Assembly (NCBI RefSeq): GCF_023055435.1
Contig: NW_025963857.1
Coordinates: forward strand, 16,678,001-16,742,000
Direction of reading: 5' to 3'
DNA from: Haliotis rufescens
Lineage: Eukaryota
Length of the DNA: 64,000 bases
Shown here: piece by piece, positions 6,282 through 60,785 of the stretch
Numbering within the stretch: position 1 is the stretch's first letter
Layout: each line of letters starts with the position of its first letter
Program-made: the position numbers and the translations under genes
The notes under the pieces: generated by a model
Told to the model about the DNA's origin: nothing
The model's database searches: none
What the model saw: only the letters and a program-made list of their open reading frames with translations

Positions 6282-6384
6282 ACCTGTTGTTACCATGGTT
6301 ACAGTATGCATGAGTTTGTTTTTGGCATGCAGGGGTGAGAGGTCACTTTGGGAAAATCTTTGTAGATATCGTCCTCAAATGCCA

Positions 6385-7340
6385 CAGTGGAGACCCAGAT
6401 ATGACATGACCCCAGCAGCCTATGATTAGCTTCATGGGGTCGGGTGGTAAGGATCCAAGACTTGGTTCCGTGTCATCTACCCTGACAGCGTGGAGACCCA
6501 GATATGACCCCAGCAGCCTATGATTGGCTCCAGGGGGTCAGGATCCATGACATGGCTCTGTGTCATCTACCCTGACAGCGTGGAGACCCAGATGTAACAT
6601 GACACCAGCAGCCTATGATTGGCTCCAGGGGGGTCAGGATCCATGACATGGCTCTGTGTCATCTACCCTTACAGTGTGGAGACCCAGATATGACATGTAC
6701 CCCAGCAGCCTATGATTGGCTCCAGGGGGTCAGGATCCATGACTTGGTTCCGTGCCATCTACCCTGACAAGGGGGTCAGGTGGTAAGGATCCAAGACTTG
6801 GTTCCGTGTCATCTACCCTGACAGCGTGGAGACCCAGATATGACCCCAGCAGCCTATGATTGGCTCCAGGGGTCAGGATCCAAGACTTGGTTCCGTGTCA
6901 TCTACCCTGACAGCGTGGAGACCCAGATGTAACATGACACCAGCAGCCTATGATTGGCCCCAGGGGGGTCAGGATCCATGACATGGCTCTGTGTCATCTA
7001 CCCTTACAGTGTGGAGACCCAGATATGACATGTACCCCAGCAGCCTATGATTGGCTCCAGGGGGTCAGGATCCATGACTTGGTTCCGTGCCATCTACCCT
7101 GACAAGGGGGTCGGGTGGTAAGGATCCAAGACTTGGTTCCGTGTCATCTACCCTGACAGCGTGGAGACCCAGATATGACATGTCACCAGCAGCCTATGAT
7201 TGGCTCCAGGGGTCAGGATCCATGACTTGGTTCTGTGTCATCGTCCCCTAGACAGTGTGAGACATTACTGACCCAGACTATTATTCACAGGCGACATAGC
7301 TGGAATAGTGTTTAATATGCGTTAAACAACATTCACTCAC
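6385..7340 (+). repeat. Minisatellite (about 85-95 bp unit, about 10 copies) formed inside a degenerate family-B SINE
   Basis: Unit gtggagacccagatatgacatgaccccagcagcctatgattggctccagggggtcaggatccatgacttggttccgtgtcatctaccctgacagc; the array runs into a family-B 3' tail at 7270-7340. Confidence 0.9.
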
Positions 7341-7603: not shown

Positions 7604-7879
7604 GGACCCGTGAAGATTCCGAGGTAGAATAGATTTTCAGCAACACATACTTGCCGTAAAAGGCGACTATGCTTGTCCTAAAAGGCCACTAACGGGATCG
7701 GTTTGTCAAGCTCGCTGACCTGGTTGATACAGGTCATCGATTCCAATTGCGTGGATCGATGCTCATGATGTCAATCACTGGATTGTCTAATCCAGACTCG
7801 ATTATTTTACTGACCGCCGTCATATAGCTGGAATATTGCTGAGTGCGGCGTTAAACAACAAGCAAACAAGCAACAAAAA
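7604..7879 (+). mobile_element. Full-length SINE family B with 13-bp TSD
   Basis: TSD aacgacttttaca at 7591-7603 and 7880-7892 defines both ends. Confidence 0.92.
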
Positions 7880-10005: not shown

Positions 10006-10330
10006 TCAAATGTTCTGACAGTATAGCTTACTTCCCTTTATTTTTCATTGTTCCTTATTCGTTTCCATCAGTATATTAAGCTTTGTAAATGATTCTTTTA
10101 ACAACTTATATTGTGGAAATGTGGTTTATTATTTCACAAAGGCGCTATTTGTTCGAATGCAGTTTCAAATTAATTTTCACCACTGCAGTATAATGAATAT
10201 TACACTACACAGTATTAATATTCTAGTCACGTGGATAAACTGAAGCATCATAACATTCTTTAACGTTAAGATCTCTTGGTTTTCCTTCTAGGATTCCATA
10301 CTTGGTTAAATGCAAACCGTTACCTGTAAC

Positions 10331-10503
10331 GACCGGGTTAGACTTGGTCTTCAGCAACCCACGCTTGTCGTAAGAGGCAACTAACGGGATCGGGTGGTCA
10401 GACTCGATGCTCATGATGTCAATCACTGGATTGTCTGGTCCAGAGTTGATTATTCACAGACCGCCGTCATATAGCTGGAATGAGTGCGGCGTTAAACACC
10501 AAA
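10331..10503 (+). mobile_element. SINE family B, internally deleted
   Basis: Head and tail match family B; about 50 bp of the middle is missing. Confidence 0.8.
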
Positions 10504-11772: not shown

Positions 11773-12085
11773 GACCCATGATGATCCGGGCTAGAATAGG
11801 CCTTCAGCAACCAATGCTTGCCGTAAAAGGCGACAGAGGCGACAGAGGCGACTAACGGGATCGGGTGGTCAGGCTCGCTGACTTGGTTGATGCATGTCAT
11901 CGTATCCCAATTTCGTGGATAGATTAATTTATTCTCAACAAACCACCCGATGTATACCATAGCAGTTGTTAAAACCTGTTTGCCAAGGTGGAGTATTCAC
12001 TGGATTGTCTGGTTCAGACTCGATTATTTACAGACCGCCGTCATATAGATGGAATATTGCTGAGTGCGGCGTTAAACAACAACCA
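11773..12085 (+). mobile_element. SINE family B with an internal insertion (about 11920-11995)
   Basis: Family-B head and tail. Confidence 0.85.
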
Positions 12086-13157
12086 ACTTGCATTTTCCCT
12101 TCCGGAGTAATGCAATTATACAACACATATAACTTGGGCAGCATGAGTTATGCGCGCACCGCATTCAGTGCTAAAATCAAATCTGCGTCTGGCTATGGAA
12201 GCTGCCTTGCCTTTCACAACCTTAGCAAGCTTAACCCTGTGGTAGACACAAACAAACATCGCTTCACTACTGCCTTGCCATGTCTTGTTCGCCAATGGTT
12301 CCACCGTCAAATGTTGACGCGTCTTCTATAATAGGCATACTCTGGCTGCAGTGGTATCTGCTGTTTTCTATCTCTGAGAGTAACGATATGAACTCCACAG
12401 TAATCAGGCCCGTACAGTATTGTTCCACTCTCTCCATCCAGAGAGAGAGAGAGAGAGAGAGCACATGTTGGAATTTAGAATTTTGATATGTTTAGATTTT
12501 AAAATATGTGCCTCCTGAAGATTTTGAATCAGTGCCATTGATGACAATGGTCCAAAAGTAACTGAGGCGACGTAAAATATTAGCTTCAATTAGGCTACAT
12601 ACGTTACCAGGATTAAAAATATAATCACTTATCTAATTAATGCAGCACATAAGCTCCGAACGTAGATGTATTTACTTCTTAATTGCACGATCGCTCTAGT
12701 TATGTGTTTCAAGATTTGCCAGCACCATCCATTACCAACAACAAGCTGAAACGCCCTTATGTGACTTAAAAAACTGTTCAAAGCGGCGTTAAACCAAACT
12801 CACCCACTCGCTCTAACAGATGCCACCAATACTGCACAGGTAACCGCTTACCGGCTAAAGGCTAAGATAATTATCTATAATCGTTGTCGGTAATTGAGTG
12901 AATTGGGTTTAGAGGCCCGTCAATGATATTACTGGAACATACAGCGAACTTAGCTTAATGTTTGAGAACAGAGCAAAGTGACAAAGGAAACTCACGAGAA
13001 CAGATATGGTACCTTCAAACGAAGGATCGTGATTAATGACAATCTGGATTCGAGCGCACAATCAGTGAATCCTGGTACAGTTAAGGAACGTAAAACTGCT
13101 AAACGAATTGCGGCGAATTGGTGTCAGTGATGGCAAACAGAGGACGGATGTCTTTAT

Positions 13158-13735
13158 CGACGTTGATCTGCCTCTTTGAATCACGGGAACTCGTCCTTTC
13201 TGTTTTCACGGACGTTGATCCACCTCTGTGAATACCAGACACTCGTCCATTCTGTTGTCACGAACGTTGATCCATATATGTGAATACCAAAAACTCGTTC
13301 ATTCTGTTGTCACGGACGTTGATCCATATATGTAAATACCAGACGCTCGTCCATTCTGTTGTCACGGACGTTGATCCATATATGTAAATACCAGACGCTC
13401 GTCCATTCTGTTGTGTCGGACGTTGATCCATATATATGTGAATACCAGACGTTTGTCCATTCTGTTGTGTCGGACGTTGATCCATATATGTGAATACCAG
13501 ACGTTTGTTCATTCTGTTGTCACGGACGTTGATCCATATATGTGAATACCATACACTCGTCCATTCTGTTGTGTCGGACGTTGATCCATATATGTGAATG
13601 CCAGACGCTCGTCCATTCTGTTGTGTCGGACGTTGATCCATGTATGCGAATACCAGACGTTTGTCCATTCTGTTGTGTCGGACGTTGATCCATATATGTG
13701 AATACCGGACACGCGTCCATGCTGTTGTCACGGAC
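13158..13735. repeat. 52-bp minisatellite, about 11 copies
   Basis: Unit ggacgttgatccatatatgtgaataccagacgctcgtccattctgttgtcac. Confidence 0.95.
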
Positions 13736-14019
13736 AATCCATCATCTGTTCTGATTCCTTGGTTTGATTGCACGCGACCCACGTGTGCGCATTGGTTTCG
13801 CCAAAGAGGGAAACGTTAACGACAGCGTCACGTCGGTTCCCTTGCTCCAATATTCAACTGACATGCCGGGATATAACTGAAATACTGTGCGGGCGTTAAA
13901 TCTCACGCGCTCGCTCACTTTCCCTATATGTTCTAGTTCTACCATGTGCACGTCCTCAATGGTCTAAATCTGTTCATCATCGACGTTGATCTATCCAACA
14001 CGAAAACCAGACACTCGCC

Positions 14020-14490
14020 CCCTCCATGGCCTATAGGGCGTCTGCCCAGAGAGCGGAAGGTCGGTGTTTCGATACCCGATCGCGTCATACCAAAAGACGT
14101 TAAAAAGATGGCACTTGTTGTTACCGTGCCTGGCCCCAAAGGGTGATAAAACAATTACTTTTCGCCTCGCAGTCAGAATATGTGCCTGTGTGTTAAACTG
14201 CGGCCTGGTGTGTAAGTGGGCTAGCACTATAAAACACACGCACACGCACATGCATAGTGCAATAATCTTCAACGCGACGTTAAACCCAATTTTGGGGCGT
14301 TCGGGTAGCCTAGTGGTTAAAGCGTTCGCTCGTCACGCCGAAGACCTGGGTTCGATTCCCGACATGGGTACAATGTGTGAAGCCAATTTCTGGTGTCCCC
14401 CGCCGTGATATTGCTGGGATATTGCTAAATGCGGCGTAAAATCAAACTCACTCACTCACTCACTAAACCCAATTTTAACTCACCTCACCT
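14020..14490 (+). mobile_element. SINE family C hosting a nested family-A SINE
   Basis: tRNA-like head, Meta-like core, tail split by the insertion. Confidence 0.8.
14294..14463 (+). mobile_element. tRNA-derived SINE family A, nested
   Basis: A box gtagcctagtgg, B box ggttcgattccc, (ACTC)n tail; 13-bp TSD taaacccaatttt at 14281-14293 and 14464-14476. Confidence 0.92.
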
Positions 14491-21994: not shown

Positions 21995-22150
21995 GGGCAG
22001 TGGGTGGCCTAATGATTAAAGCATTCGCTAGTCACACCGAAGACAAAGGTTCGATTCCTCGCATGGGTTGTATTTGTGAAGTCCATTGCTGTACCCGCTA
22101 GAATATGCCTGAAGTATTGCCGAACGCGGCGTAAAACCGCACTCACTCAC
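21995..22150 (+). mobile_element. SINE family A, diverged
   Basis: Matches 14294-14463. Other diverged copies or fragments lie near 8455, 10805(-), 11590, 26697, 33845, 53130 and 56660. Confidence 0.75.
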
Positions 22151-23024
22151 CCTGTTTGTGTAGTGTGACTCATCCCTTGTTCTTGTCGCATTGTTTCCCA
22201 TCATTTTTGAGAAACAGTAACAGCTCCCATATGCCATGTTTCCACTTCAAATCGAGGTTTATCTCAGACATGTAGTCGCGGTGCAATCAATTAACATGGA
22301 GCTAAACAAAACTGCACCAACTGCATATTTCTTTAAATAGCTAACATTCCATTTGTCTGATAAAACTAAGCATTCCCTCACTGAGAGCTCAGAACGTGTG
22401 TAGCCCTCGTATGGTGCGCACAGGGAAGGTAAAAAAAAAACATGGATACTGAAACTTCCGATCCGAGGGACTTGAGATTGAAAAAGGTACGTCTTGCAAA
22501 TCTGCATATATACGACTCCTGCCAACTCTCATTCGTCAACACTCGGAAGTTTCCGTTTACTGCAACGGACCTGTCCGGTTGACACGGCAGCATGCCAAGC
22601 ACCTTTGAACTTTGTTAAGGATTTATTTAAGCGATGAAACTGAGGAAAACTTTATTTTACTGATTGGAGATAACGTGGAAACGTCACTGAGAACTGTTTA
22701 CCTTAAAAGGTAACACCTTGGTGAACTGTCTGTGTTTGGAATAAGTAAATAGGAAATAAGTAAAATATCACAGCACTGGCAGTATATTTGGTCAAGAAGT
22801 CAAAAGGAGAGCAATAGAGAAAGTTCCGTAAGAACTTGGCGAAACTAATTCAGGTCGACGTATGATTTGTCTTCGCTAAGTTGCTCAGGTTGTGAAAGGC
22901 AAGGCAGCTTCCTTAGCCAGACGCAGACTTTGTTTTCGCACTGAATGCAGTGACCGCATAACCCATGCTGTCCAAGTTATATATGCATTGTTTTAATGCA
23001 TTACTCAGGAAGGGAAAATCCAAG

Positions 23025-23246
23025 TTTGTTTGTTGTTTAACGTCGCACTCAGCAATATTCCAGCTTTATGACGGCGGTCTGGACCAGACAATCCAGTGAC
23101 TTGCATCATGAGCATCGATTTACGCAATTGGGATACGATGACATGCACCAATCAAGTCAGCGAGCCTGACCACGCATCTCGTTAGTCTGCTCTCGCGACA
23201 AGCATGCGTTGCTGAAGACCTATTCTATCCCGGATCTTCACGGGTA
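23025..23246 (-). mobile_element. SINE family B
   Basis: Reverse complement of the family-B consensus; head ends ...cggatcttcacgggt. Confidence 0.88.
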
Positions 23247-25596: not shown

Positions 25597-25741
25597 TACC
25601 AGTGAATTTCTTGTTTAAACATGATGTTTGTTAACGTTAACACCGGGTATTAACAGCAGGGAGAAGTTGCTGTATTTGGACAAGGTGCATCGTTATTGAT
25701 AGTCGTGAAGAAGGTGTTCAACGTGTTCATTGCACTGTTCC

Positions 25742-25982
25742 ACCCGTAAGATCCGGGTTAGAATCGGTCTTGAGCAGCCCATACCTGTCGTAAGAGGCGA
25801 CTAACGGCATCGGGGGTCTGGCTCGCTGACTTGGTTGATGCATGTCATCGTATCCCAGTTGCGTAGGTTGATGCTCATGGTGTAAATCACTGGACTGTCT
25901 GGTCCAGACTGGATTATTTACAGGCTGCCGTCATATAGCTGGAATATTTCTGAGTGCGGCGTTAAACAACAAACAAACAAAC
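25742..25982 (+). mobile_element. SINE family B
   Basis: Full head-to-tail match with a single hairpin module. Confidence 0.88.
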
Positions 25983-28476
25983 TTAATGTAATTGATTTCA
26001 CATGATGCTAAACTTTGAACACACAACCTACGTAATTGAGCTGCCACTAAAACCACCCCTTCCAACATGTCCAAATGGAAGGAAATCTCAAAAACTCTCG
26101 TCCCCCACATACAGCTGGAATATTGATGATCGCGGCGTTAAACAAAAAAACCAACTAACATTTTGCTGTTCGATTTGATGTGATTTTATATAGAGATATA
26201 TACATATCCTTACTCTGGTCCGAAAGTTTTATTACATGTGTGAGTTAAGGTTTCCATAGCCAAGTTCAGACAAGGTTCACTCGGGTATTGGGCAGTAATG
26301 GAGAGTTACAACATGAGCTTATGTTGGCAAGAATGCCCCCGGTTGCACATCACTAACGGTACAGAGCTTAAACCAGACGGCGTGAACCTACCTAGACAGA
26401 TTAAGTAACACCCTTCTGTAATTGGGGTCATTTAGCGAACGCTAACTGTTCCCTGAAGACGTTGGTGGCTGATATATCACTTGTATTACAAATACTGCGT
26501 TGATATATGATTAAAACTGTTCATTATTTTCTAGTCGTAGCCTGAATGCATTAGTTTTAGCTTTGCTTCATCTACGAAAAAATTAATGCTTTAGTTTATA
26601 TTTCCATTCGTTTTGTATGAAGTTGTAATATGGTGGTATCAGTGTTTGCAATTTGCTCAGAAAAGCGTACAAAGTCAGGTTTGCTCGTCTTATTTGGGGC
26701 GGCGAGGTAGCTAAGTGGTTAAGCGTTCGCTCGTCACGCCTAAGACGGGTTTGTTTCCAACTTAGGAATAACACATGATGCCCCCGCCATGATAAGTATG
26801 GACTATTTCTAAAAGTGACGTAAAACATCGTTCATTCTCTTCTTTGGTGAAGCATTATTCTCTTCTTTGGTGAAGCATTATAAGTCTTCTTTATAACATT
26901 ACATCATGGGGAGTGAATTATGTATGCAGATATAGACTCGTCCTTGTAATGGAAGGAACGGGAACTGAAACTCGAGGGTCCTGAGGACCAGAAGCCCGCA
27001 TCAGAGGATGCACATCACAGTAGGATACTCGTGTCTTGTAATGAAGAAGGGTTCCATCTTGGCATTTTGGCAAATTTGCCGGTTCCTCTCTGACCTGTGC
27101 AAAACCCCACAGAGCTGATGTGAAGTGTCTTGGACCTTGAAAAGTCCTTGAGAATATACTAGTAAGCAAATGCATAGACTATTATTGACGTCTCTTTCAA
27201 GTTCTTCTTGGCGGTCTTCAGGTAGATTATGCCCCATCAACTGCCTATAATGAAGTTATATGTGTATAGGAGAATATGTTTCTCTACAGCATACCTGTTT
27301 TTGTTACTGGTTCTGCGTCCGAGCTTGAAACGAGATACAGGTGCGCTTCACAGATAATATATAGGTGGTTACTCGTATGGGGGAGGCTTGGTGTTGAGAG
27401 TGAAGCTGACGCTGCCATGGAAACTGTATTTTCTGTTACAGGGTAATGGGTTGAAGGTGACAAGATTGCAATGTTTTGGTTAAGCTAATTCAATGTATAT
27501 GTGGTAAAATGATATTTGGGCCGAATATGCATTGATATTCAGTTAGCAATAATCGGCCAGGTAATACGTTTTAGCACAAGTATTCGAACGATAAACAACA
27601 TTATTGTTCTCGTTCATACGGGAAATCACGTATTAAATTCAGTAGCAGTTTATGAGACTGGGCGATGTTACGTGGCAAAAGTAATGTAACCAAATATGTA
27701 ATGAATATGAACAAACGATTGAGGAAGGGATTGATTGTGATTTTCAATAACGGCCAATAATTCACAATGAAAGTCTAATTTATTGTCTCTGATGACGTGT
27801 ATTACACGCATGTATGACAGAACACTGTATAGATATGTCACAATCTGTAATTGTAATCTCAAAAATCTGCAGACCTCTAAATTGCAAAATACTACCATCC
27901 CCCTTTACTTTACTAACTGGCGCCAAATGTGTTTCTTTTTCTGTATATACAATGTATAGACATACAATAACAACATTATCGTTGTCATGGTTCCAAGGGC
28001 TGTTCAATGACAATTGGATTCTTTCATGTGCCAGAATGGGCTCATTGTGTACAAGCAGTCTGTATACAGTTACATGGTTTATCTAAGTCGAGGTAACCAG
28101 TTCTTATCAGCCAAGCTTCCATTGCGCCCACATCAACGATAAATGTAACGTATGATACGTGGTAAAACAGACATAATATGTTCCTATGTTATATTCCCCT
28201 GGCAATTACCATCGCAGTGCACGCTGCTGACAAACATGGATACTGCGTTACGTGTTGCCCTTGGCGGAGTTCCAAACTGATAATGAGGACTTTGTAGTCA
28301 AGGTTTCCTGCTTGGGAGACACCTACCTCAACAGGACTCTGATAAAGTATCAAGAGTTTAAGATAACTGATTCAACAGCTTAGATTTGGAAACAACTTTT
28401 TTAGATTTAGAAACCGCTAGAAACAGTCGGGTGCGTGAAATGAAGACCGAGTAAGCTTAAGAGTCCCTATCTCTGA

Positions 28477-29420
28477 GTTATAGAAGCTGATATTTTATAG
28501 TTATAGAATCGGACATCCGGGAGTTATAGAATCGGACATCTGGGAGTTATAGATCGGACATCTGGAAGTTATAGAATCGGGCATCTGGGAGTTATAGAAT
28601 TGGACATCTGGGAGTTATAGAAATCGGACATCTTGAAGTTATAGAATGGGACATCTAGGAGTTATAGAAATCTGACATCTGGGAGTTATAGTATCGGATA
28701 TCTAGGAAATACAGAAATGGACAGCTAGAAATTATAGAATCGGACATCTGGTAGTTATAGAATTGGACATCTGGGAGTTACAGAATCAGACATCCAGGAA
28801 TTATAGAATCGGACATCTAGGGATTATAGAATCGGACATCTAGAAGTTATAGAAATCGGACATCTTGAAGTTATAGAATGGGACATCTAGGAATTATAGA
28901 AATCGGACATCTGGTAGTTATAGAATTGGACATCTGGGAGTTACAGAATCAGACATCTAGGAATTATAGAATCGGACATCTAGGAATTATAGAATCGGAC
29001 ATCTTGGAGTTATAGAATCGGAGATCTAGGAGATATATAATTGGATATCTGGGAGATATAGAATCTGATATCTGGGAATTACAGAATCAGACATTTAGGA
29101 ATTATAGAATCGGACATCTAGGGATTATAGAATCGGACATCTTGAAGTTATAGAATGGGACATCTAGGAATTATAGAAATCGGACATCTGGTAGTTATAG
29201 AATTGGACATCTGGGAGTTACAGAATCAGACATTTAGGAATTATAGAATCGGACATCTAGGAATTATAGAATCGGACATCTTGGAGTTATAGAATCGGAG
29301 ATCTAGGAGATATATAATTGGATATCTGGGAGATATAGAATCTGATATCTGGGAATTACAGAATCAGACATCTAGGAGTCACAGAATCGGACGTCCAGGA
29401 TTTATTGAATCGGACATAAA
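28477..29420. repeat. 23-bp minisatellite, about 40 copies
   Basis: Unit gttatagaatcggacatctggga. Confidence 0.95.
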
Positions 29421-30330
29421 CCCGGGATAGGGGTTATAGAATACCTCGGATTTATTGAATGGTACATAACGAGCAGTCATAGAAGCATATATCTAAGATT
29501 TATAGATTCCGATATCAGTTATTATTTATTGTTATAATATTCTGTTGTTAAAGAATCTGATATTTTGTGGTGATACAATCTGGTATCCAGTAGTTATACA
29601 GTTGGGTAACTAGGCGAATTGGGTACATATGGGTTACATAATTGGATTTATTTGCACTATAGAACTGAATATATAGGAATGGTATAATGTGATATATATT
29701 AATAACAGTTCTACGATCGTGTTTACAAACTAAGTTCTGACTGTGTATTTCTGACAGCAAATGAATTAAACATCGCAAGGTTCCTTCCTATCAAAATAAT
29801 ATCAAAGTTGGCGTACTTGATGATTCGTTTCCATATCGTTAAAATATTTATATGTTTTGGAGAGCATTTTCCGCCAAAATATGTCAAAGGTTCCATGTCT
29901 AAATAACATCTTACCGCGCTTGTGATATCTCTAAATTTGTTTTAGTGCATCTGCCACAGCCTGTGAGTAATGGTGCATGTTGGTGCACTGAGTAAACAAC
30001 GCGTGGTTTGTTTACTCTCAAAGCTTACATCAGTACCTGCTCTGACAATATCAAACATGCAGGTGGTGGACCTAGATAAAGCATAGTTGTTTCAAGGTGG
30101 TTCAGATGGTCGGTACTTAAAGACTACATACACGATGCCACTGATTTACTACAGTGAGGTGAGGTGAAATGGGGTTTAACGTCGAGTCCAAGATTACGTG
30201 TGTGTACTCCAAAGAAGTTAAAGAACACCCGAGTTTGACTGATTAACTATAGTAATGTGAAAGAATCGGATGTTCTTTAACCTTTTCAGTAGTATATATT
30301 AATTATGTCGTGAAGTAACAGATGGTCATG

Positions 30331-30567: not shown

Positions 30568-31819
30568 CAGATGGTCATGATCGCGGTACGCCCAATGTTA
30601 AACCTGGGAAAATGTGCATATGAAGTGTAAATATATATATTTATTTAAGCGGTGGTTCCTACAAGCTACTTGTTGATGCCTCATGAAGATCCGACATTGA
30701 TGGTCTTCAGCAACCATGCTTTCGTAAATGGCGACAAAGGGCCATGTAGCTGTAATAATTCATGAGTGCGTTAAACAACAAACACACTTGTGTTGATGAT
30801 ACAAGAGAGAGCATGTACATCCCCTGTGTATCTTTGTTAGACCTCCAGATACCACATGAGTCTGGATTAGCTCCTGCTGAAGCATTTCATCATTAACCCG
30901 AATCTGTTATATGTTCATGTTCGCACATGCTTCCAAGTGCACCAATAATATCTGTTTTTCACTATAGATCCTGTGCAACAGGTGAAGTTGCTTTGTAAAG
31001 AGCAAACGCATGGATCCATTGCATGGATCAGTCTTCACTTTGGCCAATGTGGTACTAATTGATTCGTAATAGATAAGTGTTATTAAGTGCTGATTCAACC
31101 TTACATTCTTGCAATAAGCCAAGCGGTACACTATCCTATCAGTTTCATTCATGATACAAACATGTAATTTGGTAAGTTCTCTGCAACTAGGAGCGTTATA
31201 CTGTGTAATGCAGGTGCTTTCCCTGTAACATTCAGCCGTTCCTGGGAACATTTATCGCAAAGGTTACACAAGCTGGAGATGTAACAACATAAACGTTTGC
31301 ATACACTTTTTACAAACTGAATACAAATGTGATACTCTGGACTGTGTTAGTTTTACAAAGGCATTTCAGGTCTCATATATTAAAGGTTACCCAAATCTCA
31401 TGGTTGAACGTCTGAGATATATTGCTGTCTATATGCCATAGAGATAGTGTTTGCCGCATTGCTGCAAAATCACTATAGCCCCCGGATCATCCACAGAACT
31501 AGAATCGGCCAAGGACGGGCGTTGGGAACAGCTAATGACCCCGGCTGCCATATCTCTTGTGATAACAATTAACATAGGCCGTTGCCAAGGCCTTGTAGTC
31601 ATTTTTATAGACACAGATCCAACCAGCCTGTTTGTCAGACAAGTTAGTTTACCAGACTTTGTTTAAAATTGTATCTAGGAAAGTATCATTTTCGCGATCT
31701 TATATAACCACTTCGCAGGGAGCGCGAGATCGGACAGGTGTGTTTCAAGATTGGCAATCTGCCTAGACGACTTGCGACACGGGCTGTAAGGGAGACCTGT
31801 GTCAGATCCGACATCGACG

Positions 31820-33446: not shown

Positions 33447-34023
33447 GCAAGTGCGGACTCTGAGAATGATTCACCAGATGAAGCTGTGCTAGGCTTTGAA
33501 AAACTACTTTGCAGATACTTAAAGTATTTATGGATTGAGTTAGTCAGTTACCTCTGTTTATCTTTACGCCAGGTACAGCGTCGCCGTCATGATGTTACAG
33601 TTCCTTAGATGCTAGGCTTAGTCTCTGAAAATATTGAATTTTGATAGAAACAAACAACTCCATTTAACCATGAAAAGAAGCCCTGTAAGATGGAAATACT
33701 GAACTTGCTTCATTTATAAGTATAGTTTTACAGTAAGTGCTGGGCGTAAGGGAAAATAATATGATTCGGGGACTGTGACACAGACTATTTTGATGCTTGA
33801 TCATTAGTTTGTCGGACGCTCAGTGCACACTATGATACAAGATTTGTGGAGTAACCTGGCGGTTAAAGTGTTGGCTCGTCACACCAAAGACCGCGTTCGA
33901 ATCCCAACAAAGGTCCAACATGGGAAGTCCATCGTTTGTGTCATCCGCCGTTATATGACTAGAGTAATGCAGGGTAAAACTTCACTCGTTCGCTTATTTG
34001 GCCATGAATTCTAAACCTAACCA

Positions 34024-34183
34024 GGGTGGTGGGGTAGCCTAGTAGTTAAAGCGTCGCTCATCACGCCGAAGACCCGGGTTCGATTCCCCACATGGGTACA
34101 ATGTGTGAAGCCCATTTCTGATGTCCCCCACCGTGATATTGCTGGAATATTGCTAAAAGCGGCGTAAAACAATACTCACCCAC
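34024..34183 (+). mobile_element. SINE family A
   Basis: Near-consensus copy. Confidence 0.9.
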
Positions 34184-34824
34184 TAAACATGTCATCGTGG
34201 AAAGTTCGTTTAATTCAACTCACTTATGCTGCCCTACTAGGAAGAATCACGTGTGTGCAGGACTTTGCCAGTGCATAGATCTACGAGACACAAATACCTG
34301 AGTGATAAGACCATTTGGCGTAACACTAGATCCCTTGGCTTGAAACATGAGACAGTTTAAATTTAGCCGTTTACTCAGTTTGCCATAACTTAAGTTTCAT
34401 TTGTCTACTCGTTGCGCGTAACAACAACAGTTGCAGCAGAATCGCCGTACGCTGAAGAGAGTGGATATATTTATACCCGCTGATTACCTAGACATTGCAT
34501 TTGGGGAATAGTTTGGGACGCGTCGACATTTCACCAACTCTCGTTTCTTCCTAGGGACTATCTAGACATGGTTAACAGCTGCACCCTTTATGGCTCGACA
34601 CACACTCATTGGTATCCCGAACGTCGAGACTGAAATGGTCATGATGTGATTATCGAATGCAACACTGGACGGATATGCTCATCCCTTAGTACCCTACATT
34701 CTTCAGTTTCGTATGTCCGTGTGTGGGCTACACAGATCTTTTTTTTTAAGAAGACATATCTCTGACCGGACACCCCACCTAGTGGCAGATATATATGTCA
34801 TATTGAATATCATGTTCATTTTCA

Positions 34825-35065
34825 GAAGCGATTCAGGGTTAGAATTGTCCGCAGCAACCCATGCTGGTCGTAGAGGCGACCAAATGGATCGGGTTGTTTG
34901 ACTCGGTGCCATGGTTGACATCGTGTCATTGTAGCCGAGAGCGTGGAACTGGACGAAAAGTATCAGTCACTGGATTGTTTGGTCCAGACTCGATTATTAC
35001 ACAGGCCGCCGTCATATTGCTATAATATTGTTGACTGCGGCGATTAACAACAGACAAACAAGCAA
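34825..35065 (+). mobile_element. SINE family B, older subfamily
   Basis: Diverged head with tggtcg/cgacca stem; typical tail. Confidence 0.75.
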
Positions 35066-35677: not shown

Positions 35678-35932
35678 TCTTGTTTAACGCCGCACTTAGC
35701 AATATTCCAGCTATACGACGGCGGTCTTTAAATAATCGAGTTTGGACCAGACATTCCAGGGATTTACATCATTGGCATAGATCCACGCAATTGAGATACG
35801 ATGACATGCATCAACCAAGTCAGCGAGTCTGACCACCCGATCCCTTAGGTCGCCTCTGATGACAAGCCTAGTCGCTTTTTACGGCAAGCACGGGTTGCTG
35901 AAGACCAGTTCTACCCCGAATCTTCACAGGTC
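35678..35932 (-). mobile_element. SINE family B
   Basis: Reverse complement match with a duplicated hairpin module. Confidence 0.88.
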
Positions 35933-36403: not shown

Positions 36404-37155
36404 GTACGCTCTTGCTTTATCTACCTATCCGTTTCCATGGCAACCTTACAAGCGCGCGTTCGTGGAGCTCTTCTCCTATCTATCACTGTATTGAGATGAG
36501 CGCAGCTAAATTAGGCTCTTCCTGTATGGGTGCTGTGTTTCTAGGAGGAATGCGGCGTGTGTCAGGGGTATCGGGTTTCATCCCACTCCAGCTTCGCACG
36601 TGGGTCTTGCCACATTCTGACGGATTCCGGAATGGAGATTCTGGATTGAAAAACTCAGACCGGTTTCAAAAGATTAGTGATGACTTTGAGGTTCATGTCA
36701 GAAAAAATATTTTTTATTTTGGGGGAACGAAAGTATTTTGAAAAAAAATAGTTGTATATTATATTAATCCATTGATTCATACTTTAGGATAGGGTGAATA
36801 AAGATACTGTATCACCTCAACATTCCAGAGTAGAAATATATTTCCTACATACATGTCTGTGTCGAAATTATATGTGATGACAAGTTACATTTTGTATACA
36901 CCTGCAGTCCAAAATATACAACGTAATGTGTTTTTTAAAGAAGCTACACCCAAATTTATATTATGCTTTAGTCATTAAAGAGGGACCATTGTCAACAATA
37001 TGGATCTCATTTCTCATTTCCTGTAAATGTCTAAACATCGTCACTTGTACCATGTTATCAGGGAAATCATTAAATGATTGATCAGCATAAAAAAAACTTG
37101 TTCACACACACACACACGCACGCACGCACGCACGCACGCACTTAACCTGAAGCAG

Positions 37156-37878
37156 GATGTGGTTATAGATATCATATTAGTTATATGGGCGGTTAGATGG
37201 ACCATTGGTTCCATGCCCTTAATATGTTAACTGCCTGATGTGGTTATAAATATCATATTAGTTATGTGGGCGGTTAGATAGACCATTGGTTCCATGCCCG
37301 TACCTGCCTGATGTGGTTATAAATATCATATTAGTTATATGGGCGGTTAGATAGACCGTTGGTTCCATGCCCCTCATATGTTAACTGCCTGATGTGATTA
37401 TAAATATCATATTAGTTATATGGTCGGTTAGATGGACCATTGGTTCCATGCCCCTGATATGTTAACTGCCTGATGTGGTTATAAATATCATATTAGTTAT
37501 GTGGGCGGTTAGATGGACCATTGGTTCCATGCCCCTGATATGTTAACTGCCTGATGTGGTTATAAATATCATATTAGTTATATGGGCGGTTAGATGGACC
37601 ATTGGTTCCATGCCCCTGATATGTTAACTACCTGATGTGGTTATAAATATCATATTAGTTATGTGGGCGGTTAGATGGACCATTGGTTCCATGCCCCTGA
37701 TATGTTAACTGCCTGATGTGGTTATAAATATCATATTAGTTATATGGGCGGATAGATGGACCATTAGTTTCATGCCCCTAATATGTTAACTGCCTGATGT
37801 GGTTATAAATATCATATTAGTTATATGGTCGGTTAGATGGACCATTGGTTCCATGCCCCTAATATGTTAACTGCCTGA
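37156..37878. repeat. 81-bp minisatellite, about 9 copies, running into the 3' half of a family-A SINE
   Basis: Unit tgatgtggttataaatatcatattagttatatgggcggttagatggaccattggttccatgcccctgatatgttaactgcc. Confidence 0.95.
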
Positions 37879-38879
37879 ACCCCATTTTTGGTGTCCCCGC
37901 CGTAAATATGCTGGAATGTTACCAAAAACAGGTTCAAACTCTACTCGAAAACTCACTCCCTCACATTCCAACTTCCGCCTGCCACGCACACTCCACAGCT
38001 GTACGACAAGACCTGTGAATAGTTGTACCGAATCTGCTCAGTCAGCAAATGTTGCTGCAGTGCCAGAGATTCCTCTGACATAGTTGCCCTCGCGCAGACC
38101 GTTTACTGCCGTTGCTGATTACGGAAGTGTATATGGTGTTGCTGCAAAGATGTGTTGAGAAAATACAGTTTGTTTGTCACCTTGGCGGCCTTTTCACTGT
38201 TGTAATTATATTTCATAAGAATTTGCAATATTGGGGCGATGGTGGTGATGGAGTTGATGCGATCGGTTGTTTGGGAAGAAATACTATCATATGTTTCATC
38301 AAAAACAAGAAATTGTTCTCCCGACAAAAGTGAAAACAATGTATACTACTCAAAGGAACAAAAGAAGGATGTGTGTTGCAATGCCCACCAGCCATAACCG
38401 ATTGATTGTAGTTATATGAAAAAATAACGAATGTTCCTTAACACCTATGAGTAGTATCGATTGTTCGGTTCATCTTTTCACAAAAGAAAATTGCGTATTT
38501 GGCGAAGTGACCGAAACAGTATTCGGTTTCTAAATATTAAATGGTGGGTCCCCTTTGACTTTGAATATGATGTGCATTAGGTGCACAGTTGTGATGAACA
38601 TTCCAAACGCGTGTGGGCTTGTTAACGATAGAAACCTACCCAGAGGCAGCCAACAAAGAGGAGATAACTGGGAACACATTCTTGGAGGTCGCTGTGTTCC
38701 ATGCATTTGAAACTAAACACTAATTGAATTAAAAGAAACTATTTATTAATACGTTAACCTACTAATTAAAGTCTGATATCACCTACATTAATTGAAAATA
38801 ATCTCATTGCAAAGGTATATCGCATAAAACAGACATCTGTTTTTATGAGTTAATGCTTTAATGTATACAATGTATACAA

Positions 38880-39269
38880 TTACCTGTTCTTGGGTATAAC
38901 ATCTATACTCTAACCCCTGTATTACCTGGGTATACCCGCCTATTATAACCCATGTGTTACCTGTTCCTGGGTATACACGCAAGTACTATAACACCTTTAT
39001 TATCTGTTCCTGGGTGTACCGGCCTACTATAACACCCTTTATTATCTGTTCCTGGGTATACCCGTCTACTATAGCCTATGTATTACCTGTTCCTGGGTAT
39101 ACACGCAGGCACTATAAGCCCTGTATTACCTGGTTCCTGGGTATACACGCAGGCACTTTAACCCCTGTATTACCTGTTCCTGGGTATACACGCAGGCACT
39201 ATAACCCCTGTATTACCTGGTTCCTGGGTATACACGCAGGCGCTAAAACCAATGTATTACCTGTTTCAG
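38880..39269. repeat. About 43-bp minisatellite, about 9 copies, abutting an exon
   Basis: Unit tattacctgttcctgggtatacacgcaggcactataacccctg. Confidence 0.9.
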
Positions 39270-52970: not shown

Positions 52971-53929
52971 AAATCAATCTGTTCTAATTCTACACTGTAC
53001 TGATTTGAGAGACTGAAATCTATGATACGTCTGCCCCCATAACCGAAGCCCAAAGGAGACAAATAGAGCGAATGGTATAATGTAGCAATGCCAAATACAC
53101 GTTGATACTATATTTATACTATACACCAGGTTGGGTGGTGGAGCAGTCACGCGGTTAACACGTTCGTCGAAGACACAGGTTCGATTTCTCAATAAGAAAC
53201 AATGTGTACACCCATTTTTGGTGCCATGATACTGCTGCATATTGCTTAAAGCGCGCTAAAAACCACGTTCACGCATTTGTGCAAGTCGGCGATGCATAGA
53301 TCATATTGTTCTCTCCATGAAGTTAATTCCGTTGCCCCAGCTTACAGATGACAAATGGGACTCCTTCCAATGGTATTGGTAAGATGACATGACACCTCCT
53401 GCTTCCCGGACATTGTACAGTACTAACATAGATCAAATACTGCCCAGTGTGGAGTGTGTAGTCTGTCCGTACATCCCCGAGTCTGTGTACGAGCTTCTGT
53501 GTACGAACATATAATAGAAGGGTCGACCAGATTTGTTTGTTGAGGTTCAAAAAATTATTTTCAATAACTTTGGTATTGCGAATTCTGTGTCCTCTTCCCA
53601 CCGACAATCTATAGCACGGTTCTTGCATGCAATGTAGCTAGCTTAGAGGTTTTCTCAATTTGTTTATACTGACACGTGTATTCCAGCTATTGACTTTCTT
53701 TGAAAGTGTCACTGTGATATCAATGTTTACCTTAGTACAAAGTAACTTGATACAAAGGTTTGTACTATAATGACTGAAACATGAGAGCATAACGTGTAGA
53801 CTTCATCAGATAAGGTCAGTCTTGATATACATACAAGATTATTAACGGATTACGAAATGCTTGAATCATTGTAAAATTAAATGTGTTCAAAGTCACATTG
53901 TTGGATGGTCGTGATTTATTAACTCTTGC

Positions 53930-54194
53930 ACCCGTGAAGATCCGGGGTGGAATAGGTCTTCAGCAACCCATATGCATGTCGTAAAAGGCGACTTTGCTTG
54001 TCGTAAGAGACGACTAACGGGGTCGGGTGGACAGGCTCGCTGACTTGGTTGATGCATGTCATCGTATCCCAATTTAGTGGATCGATGCTATTGATGTCAA
54101 TCACTGGATTGTCTGGTATAGACTCGATTATTTACAGACCGCCGTCATATTTGGAATTTTGCTGAGTGCGGCGTTAAACAACAAACAATCAAAC
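53930..54194 (+). mobile_element. Intronic SINE family B
   Basis: Near-consensus full-length copy. Confidence 0.9.
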
Positions 54195-57963: not shown

Positions 57964-58135
57964 GGACCCCGTGGGGATTCCGGGTTAGACTAGTCCCCCA
58001 GCAACCTCTGCTGGTCGTAAAGGGGGACCAAATCGATCGGGGGGACAGGCTTGGTGACTTGGTTGATTGAGTGTTATCGTACCCCGACGGCGTGGGACGT
58101 TGTTCATAATATCAATAACTGGTTCACCTGGTCCT
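57964..58135 (+). mobile_element. Diverged SINE family B with compensatory stem changes
   Basis: ggaccccgtggggattccgggttagactagtcccccagcaacc... Confidence 0.75.
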
Positions 58136-60127
58136 GACCTCCCGAATTCGAACTATTCAAATTATTTGCTACCCATCAACCCCAAACCCTGGTCAGAAAT
58201 TACATACGTTTCTCGCCATTGTCCTCGTGTAAGACCCTAACATACTGAATCAAATCCAGTGGTGGTTCAAAAACAAATCTGCAAATTGCTTCGCTGCTTG
58301 GTAGTGGGCAAAATGCAGTGAAGCGAATGTACAAACGACACACTGGGTATGAACCGATATTATAGTTCCAAAGCTTCCATTTTCATTTGACACCAAACGT
58401 TTAACTTCCGATATACGGCCGCCATGATAGCTGTCGTCAAGGTAAGCGGATTAATTAAGGCGACGGTAAGAAGTATTGGTGACTTTCATACCTGATGCGT
58501 CGTTTATTCACCCTGTTCTTATATCTATCCTAACCTGGTGACTGACACAGTTCCGCTGTTGTTTGTGCTCCCATTGCATGACGGTCCCTTGGTGTTACGA
58601 GTAATGGCCACGTGTCGCGGTCACGTGTCGTGCTGGTGGCCAATCAGTGGAGTATTTCAAATTTCTGCAGTAAGATAACTTTTTGAATCACTTCCTCACT
58701 TTCTGAATGATTATAATTTGTAAGCTGTTTTTATACTTATTGCCATATTACTTTGATAATATTTGATCGTAATGATAAGAGACCATTTTTTCTATGTATA
58801 TATTATCTTTGAAAGATATTGGAAAGAATATCACTTCGTATCCACCAGTAAAAAATCTGAAAAATATCATATATTGGGCCCAATTCACAAAGTGATCGTT
58901 GCGTTACTCAAAAAACGTATGATCGTTAAGTGAAACGGGGCTCAGTATATTACGGTTGTTAAAGATTTTGTTATATGCAATGGAAAACCATACAGAAATT
59001 AGCATGTTCAGACGGCTTTCCCCCGATTTTATGTTTCTTATATGTCTTTACTTCCATTTTCAGAAGAAGTATTAGAGTGAAGTAGGGCATCCCAGTCAAG
59101 TCGGTGTCTGGTCCTGGAGTATGCCAGACGACGTTACAATCATTGAAGCATCGATTGGAGATTTTGTACATTTTGTTTCGATTAGAAAAGCTTTTCTTCC
59201 GGTTTTGGTACAGATATTTTAACTATCCCACGTTACGGCGTATGCTTCATGGTGACTTTGTTGAACGCGTCTCACTCTGCGCTCGCATTTCAGCATCTTT
59301 TGCTGAAACAGTGTCTTACGCTGAAACAGAATCTTATGCTGAAACAGTATAAAATGAGGCCATAAAGCGCGCACTTACTGTATATGTGTATGTCCAAACT
59401 GTTGACAAAATTAAGGGATATTTCATATTTGTTATTTATTTGCATATATTTATTTAAAGGCTAATTTAAGGCATTTGGTTGTTATAACAAGTGTTATATT
59501 CGCAACAGCTTGGCATAAAAAAGGGTTTGGAAATCAACCGAGGGAAGAAACCGATTCACGTGTGATTTAATATTCCTCACTGCCATTACGATTTTTACCC
59601 CGATATATTTTCTTCCATTGTACATAAATTGATATATACCATTAATTAGTAACAGCTCAGAATAACTACCCAAAGGAAAGACAAACGACAACGGCCACAC
59701 CGGAATATACTTCTTCATTGAGGGTTCATTTTGCAAGTCTGGAAATCTAAATCGCTGTGAACTGGCTCCAGTTTATATGGAGGCCCAAACTGGTTTCACA
59801 AAAACTTCAAACTGCCTCACAAACCAGTTTCGGTTCGAGTGTGGCCACGCCTGATATTTGGCAAAGTGACGGGAGAAAACGTGCTGAAAAGACTGAAAAG
59901 CGTTTACTAAAAAGTGTTAAAGAAAATTTGAAAATATTTACTTCAGATTTTCAAGTCCTTTCATTGCTGTACAGAACGGACTATGAGGCTTTAAGAGCGG
60001 TGTGTTGTTCTGTGTGTTAAAGTATATATGGTCCCTCTAGCGCCATTGTTGAAACAGCTCTTGTAATTAAAGACTTCATTAAACTACCCGCCATTCGAGT
60101 CATGTCTTTATTCCTTTCAAGGAGTTT

Positions 60128-60346
60128 TTGTTTGTTTGTCTGTTTGTTGTTAACGCCGCACTCAGCAATATTCAGTTATATAACGGCGGTCTGTACCTGA
60201 AACCTAGTGATTGACATCATGAACATCGGTCTACGCAATTGGAATACCATTCATGCATCAACCAAGTCGGCGAGCCTGACCATACGATACATTTAGTCGC
60301 CTCTTACAACAAGCGGAAGACCAATTCTGATCCGGATTTTCACGGG
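60128..60346 (-). mobile_element. SINE family B
   Basis: Reverse complement match; flanking ttc(a/g)aggagtt TSD-like repeat. Confidence 0.85.
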
Positions 60347-60785
60347 TTTCGAGGAGTTACTTGAGTTATCATAAGTAGATAACCTCGTGGGGGCCATTGT
60401 TAGAATTCGACCCCACAAAACTATCGCTTGACGACAATGTGATTTAAATGGTCAGGCCCTATGATTTGGTTGATTGTGTCACCGTATCCGACGGCGTGAG
60501 TTTTGCATGTGTTTGTGATGGGTGTCACCGGTGCAGCAGGATACGCTCACCATTTCGCGAACACTTGTTATCAGAAAGACAGTTTATTCAGTCGGAAAGG
60601 TCATATGGCCCACAGTACTGTTCAGTTTTAACATACATGAAGTCAACGTGATCTTGAACATAGCATGGTATATTTTCACCTTAGTCTGAACACATGTATT
60701 AAATACACTGCTAAAGATTTGATAACATCTTCATTGTTGGAATTCAACAAATTGATCATTAATTGATTGTCTTTGGGTGTAATGC

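Follow-up and report, generated by a model that had tools for sequence, protein, structure and literature searches.

Family-B copies in the window

The window, that is, the whole analyzed stretch of 64,000 nt, is repeat-rich, animal-type DNA with a GC content of about 40%. It contains 12 clear heads and one decayed relative of a SINE of approximately 250 bp, herein referred to as family B. Copies of this family measure 174-249 bp between anchors and are characterized by CAAA-type tandem-repeat tails and by target-site duplication, a clear case of which was found in one of the nine copies examined. This duplication of 13 bp flanks the 7605 copy and places the start of the element at GGA+CCCG. 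Loose ends and contig ends accumulate at the homologous start site, 53930.

Heads of the main subfamily, B1, were found as covariance-model matches on the forward (+) strand at 1488-1583, 7605-7700, 10319-10393, 11773-11864, 25741-25813, and 53929-54026 and on the reverse (-) strand at 23173-23246, 35839-35932, and 60284-60348, the last with an internal deletion. An additional match, at 30678-30746 (+), is the decayed B1 head of an internally deleted copy. In the heads starting at 1488, 7605, 35839, and 53929, a hairpin designated D is duplicated in tandem as a 22-nt unit, and the first unit usually has GCCG instead of GTCG.

Two clear heads belong to a diverged subfamily. The first of them, at 57964, is described in detail below. 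The second, at 34820-34892 (+; the 34822 or 34825 copy), is decayed in its 5' part, is followed by a full body and tail as far as about 35070, and scored 50.9 bits with a model whose training set included it. The heavily decayed relative at 60382-60456 (+; the 60383 copy), with 11.3 bits and an E-value of 0.24, is not significant alone. Its head retains four G-C pairs in stem S2, while S1, P2, and D are broken, and its body has words in common with the 57964 copy. The body after this head (60456-60642) has high depth in the DNA runs and does not resemble the family-B tail; it probably belongs to a different element of greater length whose head is related.

Other repeats were also observed in the window. 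The family-B copies 11773 (+) and 23247 (-) have about 30 nt in common past their tails (12075-12120 and 22980-23030), which suggests 3' transduction or a shared target repeat. A second SINE family (14299-14464, 22002-22159, and 33849-34192) has a (CACT)n tail with a core related to the tail of family B but a tRNA-derived head (Rfam RF00005); because of these related 3' tails, both families probably use the same LINE partner. Tandem arrays are located at 28446-29453, 13089-13804, 37066-37959, 6380-7247, and 38942-39241, with units of 23, 52, 81, about 95/54, and 43-44 nt, respectively.

The head at 57964

All parts of the 57964 copy lie on the + strand. Its 5' end, GGAC (57964-57967), was placed from the sequence and from the 7605 duplication and stands three or four bases before the first paired strand. 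The 5' strand of stem S1, CCCG (57968-57971), pairs with CGGG (57981-57984), both being assigned by local-pairing covariation. Between them are L1 (57972), a lone conserved U in the first pseudoknot, and the 5' strand of stem S2, which was called stem B in the original prediction (57973-57980; GGGGA here and GAAGA in B1, with one extra base). L3 (57985-57992) ends in the conserved AGAAUW, which is AGACUA in this copy, with one departure; since most searches required AGAAT, part of its invariance results from their design. The 3' strand of S2, GTCCCCC with one extra C, follows at 57993-57999. The 5' strand of P2, N-G-Y (here AGC, 58000-58002), pairs with G-C-K (here GCT, 58010-58012), and the loop between them contains the 5' strand of P3 (58005-58008), decayed in this copy; the strands of S2, P2, and P3 were assigned by covariation. 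Hairpin D (58013-58029), read from the sequence, has the closing pair G58013-C58029, a stem GTCG/GGAC with a G-G break, and the loop TAAAGGG, the usual loop being UAARAGG. It is followed by an AA linker and the 3' strand of P3 (58030-58036), in which C58034 is private to this copy, since G accounts for 4709 of 5368 depth units (X1) and 11925 of 14178 (X5) at this position. The remaining SINE body (58037-58140) has no recognized tail, and BLAST alignments to other copies end near 58138-58142. The bin of the 57964 copy has a depth of 14,669 and 43,683 in the two DNA runs, compared with about 12-80 for most unique bins; although this depth is no copy number, it shows that the copy has many relatives.

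According to the original prediction, this head differs from its relatives by compensatory changes in two stems. The letters on which the prediction relied are exact: GGGGA (57973-57977) faces TCCCC (57994-57998), with GAAGA/TCTTC in B1; hairpin D has TGGTC (58012-58016) and GACCA (58026-58030); the 34825 copy has TGGTCG (34865-34870) with CGACCA (34877-34882); and the 60383 copy has TGGGG (60388-60392) with CCCCA (60411-60415). The reading of these letters in hairpin D needs correction in two respects. First, the change from U-U to G-C at its base is present, but it is a gained pair and not a compensation, as the conserved state of this position is U-U. U-U was kept in all eight true copies found with the position left free, the position is unpaired in 30 of 34 alignment rows, with U-U in most, and the G-C pair is special to the diverged subfamily. 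Second, the inner part of the proposed tggtc/gacca pairing holds, but the outermost pair probably does not, as T58012 belongs to P2 opposite A58000. The words quoted for hairpin D end just before a broken pair, G58017 opposite G58025, which is G-C in B1. The observation was exact to the letter but selective: disruptive changes in the same copy, namely the broken 3' stem P3, AGACT in place of AGAAT, and the extra base in each strand of stem B, were passed over.

The 57964 copy represents an ancient insertion, by now decayed in part, from a diverged subfamily, and its G-C at two pairs of stem B is inherited. By descent, GGGG/CCCC is common to the 57964 and 60383 copies and the closing G-C to the 57964 and 34822 copies. 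The presence of GGGG/CCCC in the 60383 copy, which shares body words with the 57964 copy, suggests that it is a subfamily state. The 34822 copy likely adds a C-G pair at position 2 of stem B if one G has been lost. In total, no more than about three or four of the double changes in the three copies are independent, and several disruptive changes stand beside them. In minimum-energy folding of the single strand, the 57964 head was no better than its shuffles (z 0.25), and z was below -2 in only two of the eight heads folded; a weak signal of this kind is expected for pseudoknots. The window alone is weak evidence for selection on structure, whereas the cross-taxon set described below is strong.

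Covariation of the head fold

An 18-letter word from hairpin D matched 9 viral and 13 GTDB stretches, 7 of each having AGAAT upstream. A metagenome scan with AGAATW, YGCKT, and D fixed resulted in 73 loci. The pooled set contains 95 anchored copies, which form 35 families by single linkage at 68%. The unpaired motifs and hairpin D were fixed by the searches, and S1, S2, P2, and P3 were not.

The order of parts in the head is the 5' strand of S1, a U, the 5' strand of S2, the 3' strand of S1, L3 ending in AGAAUW, the 3' strand of S2, the 5' strand of P2, a loop with the 5' strand of P3, the 3' strand of P2, a U, hairpin D, UAA, and the 3' strand of P3. The fold predicted from covariation for the head of approximately 72 nt, an H-type pseudoknot directly followed by a second pseudoknot and including a conserved hairpin, is well supported. 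Across copies, L3 tolerates inserted hairpins, and the duplicated hairpin D of B1 may be tolerated as an insertion into the P2 loop, like the longer loops of L014, L021, L029, and L085. Stem B turns out to be an arm of the H-type pseudoknot, and the second pseudoknot, P2/P3, had been missed.

Selection on RNA structure, as originally proposed for stem B, is borne out by comparison of pairing within and between the 35 families. The score of S2 (7 bp) with its own partner was 5.83, compared with 4.91 +/- 0.10 for swapped partners, a value reached in 0 of 20,000 swaps. This score was at least 6 in 21 of 35 families, and all four Watson-Crick types are present. A U stands directly before S2 in 25 of 32 families. 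Local pairing of S1 scored 3.67 against 3.17 when swapped (0/20,000; 23 of 35 families parsed and 12 dropped). For P3, the scores were 3.26 and 2.60 (0/20,000), or 3.00 and 2.35 in the 23 of 35 families that could be parsed (0/20,000). Two crosswise, long-range alternatives, between the 5' CCCG and the strand after UAA and between the loop GGGTT and AACCC, look perfect in B1 but are at chance level across families, with 9,781 and 5,298 of 20,000 swaps.

The first pair of P2 (N-K) is formed in 29 of 32 families, 3 families without an anchor being dropped, against 16.3 expected (0/20,000). Among copies, it is formed in 68 of 83 and unpaired in 15, with 12 dropped, and the mutual information is 0.76; the metagenome pattern admitted only G or T as K, whereas N was free. 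In the 34 alignment rows, this pair is A-U in 17, C-G in 10, U-G in 3, G-U in 2, and U-A in 1. Since A-U and C-G are each found both among viruses and among retroelements, and U-A in scallop copies and L274, the change at P2 arose more than once. The scallop copies, read after P2 had been proposed, show U-A as a fourth pair type, as does L274. The third pair is U-G in 24 of 32 families and would be C-A on the other strand; such frequent U-G pairs indicate that the sense strand is the working one.

Hairpin D, fixed in the first searches, was later freed with a covariance model. With this model, 28 matches at E <= 1 were obtained from five bins, including D stems CTCG/CGAG, GATG/CATC, and CTCT/AGAG. 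Once these diverged copies were added, double changes were found at all four inner pairs, and structural selection in hairpin D, also proposed originally, is thus upheld. In a MAFFT alignment of 34 hand-chosen rows, not fitted to the fold, both partners change in 10 of 12 pairs, and the covariation score of 0.329 was reached by none of 500 shuffles and none of six slides. The pairing of P3 is present in no more than 60% of the alignment cells, partly because of its variable offset. The swap and shuffle controls ignore relatedness, and the six C-G rows of D are related. The S2 swap test outside the original sample, based on 10 related copies of the 28 matches, was not significant (1,851/20,000). 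No Rfam match was found for the head in the window at the gathering threshold or in 17 loci at E <= 1.

Occurrence in retroelements and viruses

Family B is most likely an LP-SINE, a known kind of element, and probably that of abalone (Hdi_LP/Hmi_LP), as judged from the head and the length. In PMC4758252, LP-SINEs are described from abalone, oysters, periwinkle, and scallops, with a LINE-derived head of approximately 70 bp termed the 'Nimb-17 homology', which is shared with Nimb-17_LMi, I-3_DR, and RTE-9_CPB. This span corresponds in size to the conserved part of family B, and the 255 bp given for Hdi_LP in the supplement are close to the approximately 250 bp found here. Further common features are the lack of a tRNA head, the target-site duplication, and the tandem-repeat tail, the 57964 copy being tailless. 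The scallop head copies printed in supplementary Figure S2 under the 'Nimb-17 homology' label carry the same motif, as read by eye. The head was proposed there as a promoter, with a call for experiments; the available text gives no structure for it and names no viruses, whereas a covarying fold and viral copies are described here. In a literature search of main texts, words of hairpin D were absent, and only PMC4758252 names the LP head. Neither the fold nor its link to viruses had been described before in the papers reached by this search, which did not extend to supplements, most subscription papers, and repeat-database reports. The head is apparently an undescribed, widespread structured RNA.

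The original prediction was concerned with family-B heads; its structural part holds for them, but the motif is not specific to this family. In animal-type DNA, copies stand at the 5' ends of LINEs and SINEs; others lie in the 3' UTRs of RNA viruses and in one contig of a large DNA virus. After the head, an ORF with an APE domain was found in four of eight ORFs scanned (one above the Pfam cut-off), and in L036 a motif pair precedes an APE ORF. The flanking sequences of the copies diverge at S1, and the boundary bases are not conserved. A complete two-ORF LINE with a head was observed in a scaffold of a bacterial symbiont (L288; G003:C4:518908-524609), where the head is followed by an ORF of 521 aa and then by an APE-RT-RNase H ORF of 1238 aa. 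This arrangement fits an I/Nimb-type LINE, and its presence in the symbiont scaffold is probably host contamination. Two more heads were observed shortly before long ORFs without RT. In L289 (59-3004, -), the ORF product has 982 aa and carries a TatD DNase domain at its C-terminus; in L290 (115-3792, -), it has 1226 aa and resembles hypothetical proteins from molluscs and cnidarians. The motif also forms tandem arrays, which were found in L075 (12-494, five units of about 110 nt) and in L091 (353-1000, three adjacent units of 74 nt and a fourth apart).

A bacterial origin of the GTDB matches was considered and rejected, and these matches are read as animal contamination. The bins G001 and G002 (behind L016 and L012), labeled Sedimenticola, contain at least 150 and 66 long RT ORFs, respectively; their contigs are short, and both appear to be bins of retrotransposons from an animal host. 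L014 and L021 are located at contig ends; by eye, L014 lies beside simple repeats and L021 cuts a kinase-like gene.

Six RNA-virus-type contigs carry the motif, two of them being nearly identical there. In all six, it is found on the coding strand downstream of the last stop codon, at a distance of 25-119 nt from this codon and 27-119 nt before the contig end. RdRP was found in three of these contigs and capsid in four. The L100 viral contig has a tandem pair of motifs that differ by an A-U to G-C swap in S2. In view of their distinct stems, their fixed position, and this tandem pair, the viral copies appear to be genuine and not chimeras. In a DNA-virus contig of 212 kb (L104, 7984-8045), the motif is located between two ORFs; its first pseudoknot and hairpin D look intact, and P3 is weak. 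Viral and GTDB contigs had no match to patterns close to family B, and the phage collection had no match. A viral scan with the middle pairs of D free resulted in 21 loci, of which 7 were known and 14 had no upstream fold. A looser scan of GTDB and viral contigs gave 133 matches, 8 of them with AGAAT upstream, all already known.

Possible functions of the head

The viral copies are placed like xrRNAs in all six contigs: on the coding strand, in the 3' UTR just after the last ORF, and sometimes in tandem. Tandem copies are typical of xrRNAs. As described in PMC12397905 and PMC10520033, xrRNAs are compact pseudoknotted RNAs of a size similar to the head, usually located in viral 3' UTRs, where they leave a short 3' RNA. 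The strand order differs, as the head has a 5' H-type pseudoknot followed by a second pseudoknot with an inserted hairpin; moreover, xrRNAs are viral, whereas the head is also found in cellular retroelements. Membership in the known xrRNA classes was rejected. Classes 1-2 have a three-way junction and a double pseudoknot threading the 5' end, and the head has consecutive pseudoknots, a long-range pairing of its 5' strand at chance level, and no Rfam match. Class 3, as described in PMC12397905, has a stem-loop P1/P2 with a pseudoknot that joins an apical loop to the 3' end, and in the head the first loop pairs directly after L3. The words given for the coremin xrRNA in PMC10520033 (a 4-bp hairpin with a YGAD/YGNNAD loop, a spacer, and a second hairpin) are not in the motif. 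Failing such structural tests lowers the case for membership in a known xrRNA or ribozyme class, not for functional resemblance.

The reading tentatively preferred here is that the head is a sense-strand, xrRNA-like putative block to 5'-to-3' exoribonucleases, which would set and protect the 5' end of the element. In retroelements, the trimming of a read-through or decapped transcript would stop at the base of S1. The element RNAs would thereby obtain 5' ends that are all alike and serve as a stable template in target-primed reverse transcription, and selection would favor SINE masters that keep the fold. In viruses, a short 3' RNA without coding function would remain. The 5' boundary bases are not conserved, which is easier to reconcile with a mechanical block than with a site of cleavage. 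Two small-RNA runs gave 1 and 16 reads, with no read start at any head.

Certain features argue against such a block: the topology differs from those of xrRNA classes 1-3 and coremin, and the near-invariance of the D stem, the UAARAGG loop, and UAA goes beyond the needs of an xrRNA and resembles that of a catalytic or binding core. The head could represent a new class of self-cleaving ribozyme, cutting just 5' of S1 and freeing the element RNA from a read-through transcript, a somewhat unlikely possibility. The sharp 5' boundary at S1, the many near-invariant unpaired bases, the ribozyme-sized double pseudoknot, and the tandem arrays with periods of 74 and approximately 110 nt (L091 and L075) are consistent with a ribozyme. 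The nested order of HDV-type ribozymes is not present in the head. There is precedent for ribozymes at the equivalent position of other non-LTR elements (PMC8501958 and PMC4758252): the twister T-variants of Perere-3 and the HDV-like Pr77/L1TcRz of L1Tc and ingi are, like the head, RNAs of approximately 70-80 nt at the exact 5' end, shared between different elements, adjoining a target-site duplication, and with a double pseudoknot. The head, in contrast, is also present in RNA-virus 3' UTRs, where a cut 5' of the motif would presumably sever the 3' end of the genome. The boundary has no conserved base, and cores and strand order of known classes were absent by Rfam. The twister, HDV-like, hammerhead, pistol, hatchet, and twister-sister classes had no match in the window (gathering threshold) or in 17 loci (E <= 1). 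Parses as hammerhead, HDV-like, twister, pistol, and hatchet, made by eye, were likewise rejected. The twister words printed in PMC8501958 are absent from the head, and the permuted ribozymes described in PMC10085705 are other than this head.

An unlikely explanation is a cap-independent translation element, or one recruiting ribosomes or initiation factors, acting like an IRES in LINEs and as a 3' enhancer in uncapped RNA viruses; SINEs would retain it as a means of access to nascent LINE protein. The head lies 37 to about 340 nt before long ORFs in retroelement-type contigs and is also found in viral 3' UTRs, and its invariant loop would suit binding of a protein or rRNA. The exact start of insertions at S1 would be left unexplained, tandem arrays without an ORF exist, and according to PMC12397905, 3' enhancers are specific to plant viruses.

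It is improbable that the head is primarily an internal DNA-level LINE promoter, as proposed for LP-SINEs, with the RNA fold being secondary. The 5'-terminal position, the replacement of tRNA heads in SINEs, and the dual promoter and ribozyme role known for L1Tc (PMC4758252) are in agreement with a promoter, which would predict neither covariation in five stems, with U-G pairs specific to one strand, nor copies in the 3' UTRs of RNA viruses; in addition, the scallop head stands upstream of a tRNA-derived region. More improbable still is a binding site for the reverse transcriptase of the element or for a viral polymerase, acting in 5' junction formation or replication. The motif is terminal in both kinds of elements and is retained by non-autonomous SINEs, but unrelated polymerases, LINE RT and several RdRP lineages, would need to read one fold, and the motif is also found between two genes of the large DNA-virus contig. 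Finally, the few double changes, the disruptive ones, and the z of 0.25 in the window would allow its paired changes to be chance products of neutral divergence, but this is very improbable, and for the motif as a whole it is refuted by covariation of the same stems across 35 families.

The exoribonuclease block is favored because it covers four facts: the RNA-level fold, the start of insertions at S1, the retention by non-coding SINEs, and the presence in viral 3' UTRs. The translation element, the promoter, and the polymerase site are less favored, as each leaves one of these facts unexplained. On the whole, we consider it fairly probable that one undescribed double-pseudoknot module has moved among animal LINEs and SINEs, RNA viruses that are not related to one another, and a large virus with a DNA genome, and that it represents either a new structural class of exonuclease-blocking RNA, encoded here by cellular retroelements, or a new self-cleaving class; in both cases, it would be an RNA that makes a 5' end without a promoter of its own.

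The covariation gives a specific fold with single-pair predictions, by which a promoter, a ribozyme, and a nuclease block can be separated in vitro. If a block to Xrn1 or self-cleavage proves true, the head would be a new compact RNA class and possibly a tool for stabilizing or processing RNA ends. Its presence in RNA-virus 3' UTRs links the heads of retroelements to viral RNA elements and points to an exchange of structured modules. For the retroelements themselves, the finding bears on how LINEs and SINEs without a tRNA head obtain a defined, stable 5' end.
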